Assembly (NCBI GenBank): GCA_963735035.1 | Contig: CAVTJJ010000004.1 | Span: forward strand, 960,001-1,024,000 | Source: an uncultured candidate division Zixibacteria bacterium | GTDB lineage: Bacteria > Zixibacteria > MSB-5A5 > GN15 > FEB-12 | Reading direction: 5' to 3' | DNA: 64,000 bases | In this document: piece after piece, positions 33,001-36,000 of the stretch | Layout: each line of letters begins with the position of its first letter | Numbering within the stretch: the stretch's first letter is position 1 | Program-made: the position numbers

Positions 33001-36000
33001 CGGTTGATGTTCGACATGCTGCGCCTGCAGCGAGGGGTGTTCGCTTATCCTTACGACGGCTACTGGCTGGATGTCGGCCGTCCTGCCGACTATGAGCGCG
33101 CGCAGGCGGATACGGAGATGCTGGCGCGGTTGTTGTGAGTGCGTAACGAACCGTTGACTTCTGACATGTCATCTACAGACTCGTCTCAACGTAACTGAAA
33201 ACGAGAGTCGTGTTCCTGTCATTGCGAGCGGAGATGACTCGCCGTCAGGCGGGACATCGTAGCGCGGCAATCTCATGTCGATCATGAAGAAATGTCTTGG
33301 GAGAGGTCGAGCCACTCGGGGTTCACGGAGTCAATAAGATCTATCTTCTTCCGTCGTGAGCCCGCCTTGATTTGTTTCTCACGTTCTATGGCCGAACGTA
33401 TACTTCCCGCAATCTCGTAGTAGACAAGCTTTGTCGCGTTGTACTTTGCTGTGAACCCAGGCTTAGTTCCACTCTTGTGTTCGTCAATCCGCCGGATTAG
33501 ATCGCTGGTCACACCAGTGTAGAGAACCGAGTTTGACTTGTTCGTAAGGATGTAGACGTAACCGTTCTTGGACACGATTCCTCCGAGATTTCCACGGCCG
33601 CCAAAGGCGGCCTCGCAATGACGTTGGGTGCAGGCTGCATAATAATGGCAGCTTTCTGTTAGTTCATAAATCAAGGTGCGGGTCGGTCTAGTTGTCTATC
33701 ACATTTGCGTTGGACCCACGCGATGTGAGATTGCCACGGCCGCCAAGGGCGGCCTCGCAATGACAGTATGGGCGGGCGGCCTCGCAATGACAGTATGGGC
33801 GGGCGGCCTCGCAATGACAGTATGGGCGGGCGGCCTCGCAATGACGGAGCGAAAGTCGTTCAGGGCAGTGTCGCAATAACTTTACGAGAAACGCCTGCGG
33901 TTGGAGCGTCAAGAATTCATCGAACTACCCCCCTCGCTTCAAACCTTGACTTGAAACTGGCGTACCCCTATGTATGCCTACCCGGTCGGTGAGGGCGAGC
34001 CGATACGATTAATCGCCGTTGTTGTCCGGGTCATATAAGGCGTGACATGAATAACCGCAAAGGAGAATTGATATGAAATGGATTCTGATCACCGCCCTGT
34101 CTCTCACCCTGCTTGGTTGCGGAGGTGGGGGCAAACAAGTAACCCGTCTCGACGCTAACAGCCAGACCGATCTCAGCGGCAAATGGAACGACACCGATTC
34201 GCGCCTGGTCGCTCAAGAGATGATAAGCGACTGCCTCTCTCGTCCCTGGTTGACCGATTTCAATCGCACCAAGGGTGCGAAGCCGGTGGTAACGGTCGGC
34301 ACGATCGACAACCTCAGCCATGAACACATTGCCACCGAGACGTTCATCGCCGATTTCGAGCGCGAGCTGGTAAACTCATCGCAGGTTCGATTCGTGGCCG
34401 CGTCCAACTGGCGGGCCGAAATTCGCAAGGAACGTCAGGAACAGCAGGAATTCGCTTCGCCTGAGACTATGAAGAAGATGCGCAACGAGCTCGGCGCCGA
34501 TTTCATGCTTCAGGGAACGATCAATTCCATCGTCGATCAGGAAGAAGGCAAGCAGGTCGTCTTCTATCAGACCGATCTGACGCTAGTCAACATCGAGACC
34601 ATGGAGAAAGTCTGGCTCGGACAGAAGAAGATCAAGAAGGGAATCTCACAGGGTAAGACCTCCTGGTAGCCAATGTCTGACCAGCTTCGATTCTTCATTC
34701 GCTCCGGTTTGATCTTGCTCGCGACCTTGTCGCTTTCGGGCTGCGGCTCCATGGCCACCCGGGTCAGCTTCTACGAGCCGATAACAGCATCGGCCCGCCT
34801 GGGGCAGTATGATTCCGCGGCGGTCTATCTGGAGAAGGCCAAGGCGAAAGGCAAGTATGACACGAAAGACCGGGTCGTGTATTATGTCGATGCCGGTCTT
34901 GCGTACCACTATGCCCGGCAGTTTGATTCGAGCAATGTCCGCCTGACTGCCGCCGAGAACGCCGCCGAAGAACTATACACCAAGAGCATCTCCAAGGCGG
35001 CGATGTCGCTCGTGCTCAACGACAATGCTCTCGACTACGCCGGGGAAGATTACGAAGTTCTCTACACCAATCTGATCAAAGCGCTCAACTATCTCGGCGA
35101 GGACAATTTCGAGGATGCCTTTGTCGAAATCCGTCGCGCCAATCTCAAGTTGGACTTGCTGGATCAGAAGTACGCCGATGCTGCCCAGGAATTTCAGCGA
35201 GAAGAAGAGTCGGATTCCAACTCTGTGAAGATCAACTACGACGTCAAGCCGGTTCGATTCTACAATTCCGCGCTGGCCCGTTATCTATCGATGCACATGT
35301 ATGCGGCGTCGGGGAAAGACTTCGACGCCGATCTCGATTTTACGTTTCTCGGCCATGCGTTTGAGACTCAGCCCCACATCTACAATTTCGCGCCGCCGAG
35401 GGTGTCATACCGCTCCGATTCAGGCGGGGTGTTGTCGGTGGTGGCGCTGGCTGGCATGGCTCCGGTTAAGCAGGCGATGAACCTCCGTATTCGCACCGAC
35501 AAAGACCTCAACCTGGTGCAGGTGCTGTACACCGATCCGAAAACCGGTGAGTCAGAGTACGGTAACTTCCCGATTCCGGTCAGCGAGGATTACTATTTCG
35601 ATTTTTCAATTCCTAATCTGATCGATCGGCCGTCGCGGATTGCCCGAATCGAAGTCTACGCCGACAGCAACCTTGTCGGTGAGCTGTCACTGCTCGAAGA
35701 TGTTTCATCGGTGGCGCGCGAGACCTTCGAAGCCAAGAAGACCCTGATCTACATCCGGACCGTCGCGCGCGCGGTTGCCAAGGGGCTGATTGCGCATCGT
35801 CAGAAAGAGAAAGCCGATACCGGTGGCCTGGGGGGATGGCTAAAGAAGGCGGCGATTGATGCCGTCAGCGACATCTCCGAGAGCGCCGACCTTCGTTGTG
35901 CGCGTTTACTCCCGGGGAAAGTGTATGTCGGTGATTTTGTCATGCCGCCGGGGAAATACAACGTGACGGTCGAATACCTGGATCAAACGGGGGCGCGCAT

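Follow-up and report, generated by a model that had tools for sequence, protein, structure and literature searches.

Four small genes in the genome of an uncultured Zixibacteria bacterium (G000), one of them in the window (the whole 64,000-nucleotide stretch of DNA analyzed, on contig C4), are near certain members of the Ssn family of nucleases. We propose that they encode site-specific single-strand endonucleases whose cognate targets are the tagged hairpins around them, cleavage being predicted from sequence. The system is mostly a known one, with new variants within it. The pairing of Ssn with hairpins has already been published by Chenal et al. 2025 for SsnA and NTS (SRM; cd10448; PMC11893778). 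According to the accessible parts of that paper, no site-specific ssDNA endonuclease had been described before the Ssn proteins, SsnA cleaves ssDNA on the sense strand only, at a distance of a few bases upstream of the repeat, and lowers the integration of transforming DNA, cross-cleavage occurs among SsnA homologues, and a likeness to REP/RAYT is raised as a hypothesis; the survey described there retained a single homologue for each genome, and paralogues are not discussed in it. CGTC-tagged REPs were catalogued by Di Nocera et al. 2013, who, according to the portions available, found no dedicated enzyme (PMC3733652), and the present findings bear both on the role of Ssn outside Neisseria and on the origin of these repeats.

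The Ssn genes and their hairpin families

The window gene and the site that it occupies comprise these features:

32410..33138, + strand: host nucleotidyltransferase gene, left edge of the insertion site
33217..33274, + strand: long hairpin downstream of ssn, L1 subtype, with its TGTC tag pointing away from the gene
33282..33575, - strand: ssn gene, long-hairpin subtype (KAGSRRKK), with a GTG start and GGAGG at 33580-33584
33585..33623, - strand: proximal long hairpin upstream of ssn, L3 subtype, outer stem with one mismatch, terminating at the ribosome-binding site
33727..33765, - strand: distal long hairpin upstream of ssn, L3 subtype, complete
33766..33846, - strand: array of three 27-bp 5'-half copies in tandem, each made up of the tag and the 5' arm, upstream of the complete distal hairpin
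34073..34669, + strand: host lpoB-like gene, right edge of the insertion site

The other three genes lie elsewhere in the genome:

C5:31714-31430: ssn paralogue
C6:20382-20110: ssn paralogue
C3:918204-917920: dead ssn paralogue with an internal TGA

The first-pass annotation had reported a GIY-YIG gene in the window and four Ssn-like paralogues, one of them broken and each with its own hairpin family, and all of this was confirmed at the places that it gave. The window product is a 97-aa single-domain GIY-YIG nuclease (PF01541, E 4e-17) with its catalytic-type residues Y8, Y19, R29, H33, E66, and N85 intact. All four proteins are 93-97 aa long with PF01541 as their sole domain, and they are 43-62% identical to one another. 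When the orthologue of N. gonorrhoeae, rather than the N. meningitidis protein, was used as the tblastn query, its SsnA locus matched every one of them with E values of 2e-33 to 9e-23 and identities of 48-60%, so that all four fall within the homology threshold given in PMC11893778 (E < 1e-10). Two records, both unrelated, came out of a primer-based scan for the N. meningitidis locus. The equivalents of the catalytic residues Y6, Y17, and E64 are kept in the window, C5, and C6 genes, and the C3 gene has Ala at the catalytic Glu position in addition to its internal stop. Oriented tagged hairpins stand on both sides of the gene at all four loci, as NTS repeats do at the N. gonorrhoeae SsnA locus, and only one hairpin class is present within 400 bp of each gene; around the C6 gene the copies are in direct and not inverted orientation, and one full dimer is present as well. 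The resemblance to SsnA-NTS, as far as the accessible text describes that system, extends to a small single-domain GIY-YIG protein, to flanking hairpins that are oriented, carry a YGTC tag, and have a C following the stem, and to many dispersed intergenic copies. Several paralogues in one genome are ordinary in this lineage: 18 of 40 relatives match at E < 1e-20, with at least two ssn genes in 9 and four in 3. A PDB sequence search gave 1zg2, a UPF0213 GIY-YIG, as its sole match, and a single-sequence AlphaFold model was set aside (pLDDT 47).

The region of the nucleotidyltransferase gene is syntenic but free of ssn in three relatives (G001, G002, and G015), and in G001 a short-class dimer occupies the site. 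The window cassette has no IS1182-type ends. The patchy occurrence of the hairpin-ssn-hairpin cassette at non-syntenic sites points to arrival by horizontal transfer or recombination. A plasmid search matched 35 records, none at ≥80% identity, several of those listed being chromosome-sized. Among fragments of four sequencing runs, one joint that skipped the window gene was set aside, its match on one side covering 38 letters and most likely deriving from a dimer elsewhere.

Under strict patterns, 315 hairpins were counted genome-wide. The four nuclease-bracketing families of the first-pass annotation stand, and its copy numbers of 84, 61, 32, and 30 give way to strict counts of 101 for the long class of the window gene (L1 49, L2 26, L3 26), 63 for the C5 type (T85, with about 20 more partial copies), 44 for the C6 type (B74), and 40 for the C3 type (C74). 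Fourth-order Markov controls, run for the first, looser patterns only, contained 0-10 matches per family versus 23-68 observed. Just 11 of the 315 copies lie in the core of long ORFs (≥200 aa), which by a crude ORF caller make up 69% of the genome, in agreement with the earlier statement that the copies are mostly intergenic. Most hairpins are arranged as fixed-length dimers with their tags outward (L1-L2 25, C74-C74 16, G74-M85 16, B74-B74 14, L1-L3 12, B74-G74 9, and M85-P85 6); none of the 63 T85 copies is in a dimer, and no B74-C74 dimer was found. Two further families of 56 and 39 copies that had been described as lacking a nuclease were not reproduced; in their place we find G74 (33 copies), M85 (26), and P85 (8), and these supposed orphans are heterodimer partners chained to the C6 family. 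Besides those at the ssn gene, the window contains the following copies:

4318..4491, no strand: dispersed L1-L2 long-hairpin dimer, an unrelated repeat inserted in its spacer, with degenerate IS1182-type ends
14291..14421, no strand: dispersed 131-bp L1-L2 dimer, IS ends not recognizable
19460..19498, + strand: single L3 long hairpin
51028..51172, no strand: 145-bp C3-type (C74) inverted dimer with a masking mini-hairpin before both tags
55676..55822, no strand: 147-bp C6-type (B74) inverted dimer

The short classes have a perfect stem of 7-8 bp, a 4-5-nt loop, and CCA. With the CGTC REPs, as described in the available portions of PMC3733652, the families here have in common the unpaired CGTC/TGTC tag, a mostly dimeric arrangement, the presence of several families per genome, and, in the short classes, 4-5-nt loops and CCA tails; the unpaired tag and dimers of REP families 1-4 recur here with the exception of the C5 type. 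The short classes roughly fit the four published families (8-9-bp stems and 4-5-nt loops), whereas the long class does not; it is set apart from all four by their text description, in which variant loops are mentioned for Bradyrhizobium.

A fifth short GIY-YIG gene (C3:441857, 88 aa) has no SsnA match and is not an Ssn gene, and no tagged hairpins of these families lie alongside it. It sits within a tandem array of about five 100-bp units (G000:C3:441700-442570; L267:700-1580), each unit consisting of a promoter-like stretch and the 5' half of a downstream tRNA-Met and most containing a small inserted palindrome. The array looks like the 5'-half duplication described below for the hairpins, with a tRNA gene as the target. 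At similar weak-match GIY-YIG loci in relatives, a tRNA gene was present in 4 of 8 (Ser, Ser, Met, Asn). An Rfam search of the five GIY-YIG loci returned nothing but a tRNA, and titles and abstract openings in the literature yielded nothing on GIY-YIG with tandem tRNA.

Long- and short-hairpin subtypes

The long hairpin combines its tag with a stem of 5 bp, a GA bulge, and an inner hairpin that varies; a C follows the stem. The published SRM pattern matches 0 of the 101 long hairpins and 36 of the 315 overall, with a single match beside the four ssn genes, at C3; a match is not required for Ssn membership because PMC11893778, in its accessible parts, finds SRM beside only 71% of homologues. 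The proteins differ in parallel. The window type has the signature KAGSRxKK versus KxWxRxWK in the others, and where SsnA has xWxRxW in the published material available, the window protein has AGSRxK. Among the best 80 of 530 relatives of the window gene, drawn from 16 named phyla, the long tag was near the gene in 77, on both sides in 59, and accompanied by SRM in 0. Queries with the C5 protein (25 of 26 loci scored) and the C6 protein (69 of 80 scored, those left unscored lying below 55 bits) recovered mostly short hairpins or none. With the ascertained set excluded, loci for which the window protein was the best match had long hairpins in 13 cases, short ones in 3, and none in 11, and the other loci had 4 long, 64 short, and 36 none, counts in which kin are not independent. 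At the two signature positions, proteins of the long class carry G in 85 and K in 76 of 88, and those of the short class carry W in 61 and W in 59 of 66. The hairpin label clusters on a quick tree of 203 proteins (15 changes versus 65.8 when shuffled), a weak tree in which 107 of 200 inner branches are open and the long subtype is not shown as one clade.

The window gene is a distinct Ssn subtype tied to a long bulged hairpin. We did not find it in print, our coverage of Chenal et al. being partial; the long motif as text gave nothing in titles and abstract openings, and a term search of 13 of the 14 supplements of PMC11893778 contained neither 'GTCATTGCG' nor 'paralog'. Rickettsia RPE-7 may belong to the long class. 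The repeats RPE-4, -6, and -7 of Rickettsia have the same tag in the parts of PMC3767692 available. Extrapolating from SsnA biochemistry, each Ssn protein would bind its own hairpin when the strand is single and nick it a few bases to the 5' side of its YGTC tag; the long bulged hairpin would be read by the AGS subtype and the short perfect ones by the W subtype. The two-residue signature (G72/K76 versus W/W) predicts which hairpin class is read; the genome, with three intact paralogues and several hairpin classes, is a ready test set, and a second specificity class, if real, would add to the tools available for work on ssDNA. Another type of long tagged hairpin, with a CTGAG/CCGAG core, was also seen at about 12 sites in G000, with no nuclease beside it; in other genomes (L048, L143, L151, L198, and L213) it flanks Ssn genes.

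How far specificity extends among the short hairpins is a separate matter. The C3-, C6-, and G74-type hairpins have one common 7-bp/4-nt architecture, B74 and G74 also have common tails and form the 9 mixed dimers, the short span classes are interleaved among the W-type proteins on the tree, and SsnA homologues cross-cleave (PMC11893778, accessible parts). These observations suit a reading in which one nuclease per family reflects co-inheritance of the cassette and any W-type enzyme cuts all short families, which would leave two functional systems, long and short, and not four or six. This reading is a genuine possibility, if one to which we do not incline: families do not mix within 400 bp of any of the four genes, B74 and C74 do not pair in dimers, and some span classes do group together on the tree (for S21, 8 changes compared with 11.8 after shuffling).

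Multiplication of the hairpins

Many of the long hairpins spread inside a 182-bp IS1182-type MITE, whose interior is a pair of Ssn-type hairpins; no such case was found in print. Three near-identical autonomous copies of the element are present (C3:378024, 385603, and 509021), with an IS1182 transposase (NF033551, above the cut-off), 16-bp inverted ends, and 4-bp duplications, and they are located in hairpin loops. Both IS1182-type ends (within 3 mismatches) occur on 18 of 32 long dimers, mostly 180-183 bp overall, and of these 18, 5 have an exact 4-bp target duplication and 13 have one when a single mismatch is allowed, versus 1.6% and 8.8% for a cross-paired null. In total, at least 36 of the 101 long hairpins lie inside the MITE, which means that a different enzyme copied a third or more of the window's family. 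The first reading of this DNA implied that the nuclease alone did the amplifying, which is not supported on this count, and repeat copy number cannot be taken as a measure of nuclease activity. The terminal inverted repeats, target duplication, and autonomous copies are those of the IS1182 family, the difference being that here the interior is an Ssn-type hairpin pair and the targets are hairpin loops. The literature (titles and abstract openings) gave nothing for IS1182 MITE with REP. A second MITE with the same type of ends has a RAYT-type cargo (G000:C3:548218 and C4:3575), and its C4:3575 copy occupies the loop of a hairpin of the C3 type and shows a 4-bp duplication.

GIY-YIG chemistry is hydrolytic. 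In the mechanism that we propose, the hairpins would multiply as inverted dimers through repair of tag-side nicks, this repair proceeding by recombination or template switching because the chemistry is hydrolytic, and the long class also by riding the IS1182-type MITE, as the ends and target duplications show. Relatives with a strong ssn match have a median of 35.5 hairpins versus 6 in those without one, and the 22 relatives without a strong match, whose assemblies are incomplete, include genomes with up to 87. The C3 cassette is colinear with C74 dimers over ~100 bp upstream and ~60 bp downstream, with the gene in the middle, so that either the cassette is a dimer with a gene inside or the dimers are deletions of the cassette. 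No such derivation was accepted for the long or C5-type hairpins, since the dimers and their own ssn cassette have no common interior outside the hairpins. Together with the fixed length and outward tags of the dimers, the C3 colinearity and the medians would fit Ssn as the missing dedicated "transposase" of CGTC repeats, hairpin-ssn-hairpin being the autonomous element from which the non-autonomous 144-148-bp dimers derive, a relation like that of REPINs to RAYTs. We consider this unlikely: the ssn genes are each present once and share 43-62% identity, neither an HUH nor a DDE domain accompanies the GIY-YIG domain, 55 short-class dimers showed no target duplication at a consistent offset at their ends, the long dimers are moved by IS1182 ends, and the C5 type forms no dimers at all.

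RAYT proteins are HUH/Y1 transposases capable of strand transfer. The genome has six RAYT-like genes (PF01797):

G000 C3:165484
G000 C3:433887
G000 C3:865329
G000 C4:8010
G000 C4:1466644
G000 C6:22391

The repeat beside each gene is distinct, except that two of the genes have one in common, and the largest of these families has 257 pattern matches. The Ssn and REPIN/RAYT systems are alike in the single-copy enzyme gene flanked by its own repeat, in repeat-specific enzymes side by side in one genome, and in inverted dimers of fixed length; they differ in the enzyme, a HUH/Y1 transposase there and a hydrolytic GIY-YIG (Ssn) here. The two had been called independent, and this holds for the enzymes and for the sequences, the examined flanks of all six RAYT loci having other repeats than the Ssn hairpin families. 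It does not hold for position or regulation: RAYT-flank repeats are no more than 150 bp away from 88 of the 315 hairpins (T85 alone, 39 of 63), compared with 11.8% for random positions outside ORFs, some hairpin dimers are interrupted by RAYT-type repeats, and one RAYT gene has the promoter box common to three ssn genes. We found nothing on GIY-YIG with REP/RAYT in titles and abstract openings.

This clustering raises a further alternative, in which IS1182 and RAYT enzymes spread the hairpins, these persist as RNA elements or as hot-spots of insertion, and the ssn genes are passengers that merely target them. The MITE bears long hairpins in G000, its end-plus-tag junction is abundant in relatives as well (26 in G010, 23 in G031, and 22 in G039), and IS1182-type ends enter hairpin loops, Ssn-type ones included. 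Such an account is nevertheless quite improbable to us, as the protein subtype follows the hairpin class across 16 phyla, partial duplications are polar and on the tag side, and none of the six RAYT loci is flanked by an Ssn hairpin family within the flanks examined. We prefer the proposed mechanism; taken as a whole (Ssn nicking, dimer spread, MITE riding, WYL induction, and masking), it is in our estimation probable, with a good deal of reserve.

Promoter box and tag-side signatures

The box CTGACA-N5-TGTCAG has 9 exact sites in the genome, and other spacings from 2 to 9 give 0-2. The sites include recA, a comM-type gene, one RAYT gene, and the C3, C5, and C6 ssn genes; recA and comM are named from sequence and Pfam. 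A further site is in the gap that separates an HTH-WYL-WCX gene from an HTH gene, and the remaining two exact boxes are as follows:

G000:C4:653854: roughly 330 bp upstream of an unnamed gene that is followed by a holA-like one
G000:C4:882488: before a small unnamed gene, divergent from nfo in relatives

In relatives, 14 of the 30 loci examined had the box ahead of recA, comM, or the DUF/nfo locus, and in all 14 the A and T of the -10 element follow exactly 10 nt on, compared with 2 of 14 when the opposite strand was read as a control. It was upstream of 12 of 35 relative ssn loci (7 genomes) and downstream of 0 of 35; a -10 at 10 nt was present in 11 of 15 boxed ssn loci, the C3 and C6 boxes of G000 having no good one. 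The window gene has no box (best match, 4 mismatches), nor do the 5 long-class relatives listed, the remaining 23 of the 35 relative loci, or any of 168 loci of other taxa.

The palindromic box at recA and at a regulator locus, with its fixed distance to the -10, has the form of a WYL regulon. The HTH-WYL-WCX gene (C4:1624924-1625889), followed by the boxed HTH gene in which no WYL domain is detectable, forms a pafBC-like pair (G000:C4:1624924-1626651; L274) that is a candidate regulator by proximity; a LexA gene is also encoded in the genome. According to the parts of the sources available, the DdaA and DriD boxes have the same spacing and regulate recA (PMC9186387, PMC12392091), and PafBC, which responds to ssDNA by becoming active, works through a -26 element (PMC11804915). 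Those regulons differ from ours in the box, here CTGACA-N5-TGTCAG, and in that the regulator here is assigned from proximity; Ssn genes were not seen as members in the accessible parts of the three papers. The box on three W-type ssn genes suggests DNA-damage induction, for which we found no printed report. A WYL-domain sensor of ssDNA may turn these genes on together with recA and comM, in which case they would act during DNA damage or recombination and the W-type enzymes might trim repeat-bearing ssDNA. A damage-inducible promoter, if true, would be the first regulatory clue to the purpose of Ssn.

Partial duplications of the hairpins occur only on the tag side. Copies of the 5' half (tag plus left arm) directly upstream of a full hairpin were found at 16 of 308 copies in G000, the 27-bp array of the window being one case, and at 40 of 442 at ssn loci of other taxa; not one 3'-half copy was found downstream of a hairpin in either set. 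This polarity (56 versus 0, a few examples being near-duplicates) was not found in print.

A second tag-side feature distinguishes the B74, C74, G74, and M85 families, in which a small hairpin stands just upstream of the tag and takes the first three tag bases into its 3' arm. With a 6-bp stem and at most one mismatch, it is present in 106 of 143 copies versus about 5 in shuffles; 82 stems are perfect, 10 stem sequences occur, and one change tracks the C/T of the tag. The structure is thus supported by covariation, was not found in print, and in one example folds as such (z -3.6). It was seen in 14 of 15 copies in G002, 1 of 13 in G001, and 1 of 126 in other taxa, and the long and C5 families have none. 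By arithmetic from the oligonucleotide lengths in the available part of PMC11893778, it spans the SsnA cut position, about 3 nt before the tag, and many resident short hairpins could thereby mask their own cut site. We infer that it protects this site; the pattern could also come from template-switch perfection of palindromes or from selection at the RNA level.

Neither the box, MITE capture, the masking hairpin, nor polar duplication was found in the accessible parts of PMC11893778, and titles and abstract openings of SsnA follow-up studies held nothing on these points. A wider synthesis is tentative, and we would not expect all of it to hold: Ssn enzymes would generate CGTC-tagged REPs in orthogonal subtypes, with a widespread, uncharacterized AGS subtype reading the long bulged hairpin by structure; in this lineage most would be under an ssDNA-sensing WYL switch with recA and comM, and the repeats would hide their cut site, making the whole a self/non-self filter on recombining ssDNA.

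Several other features of the window were recorded. An IS110-family transposase lies at 27093-28151 (+), a stretch of which recurs at six genome sites, and a tRNA-Arg(ACG) at 42881-42956 (-). Coding tandem repeats of 69 bp at 403-662 and 13476-13624 presumably follow a thrombospondin type 3-like pattern. Dockerin-like repeats are a trait of the candidate phylum Zixibacteria, and a protease-like ORF at 37456-39750 (+) has one at its end.
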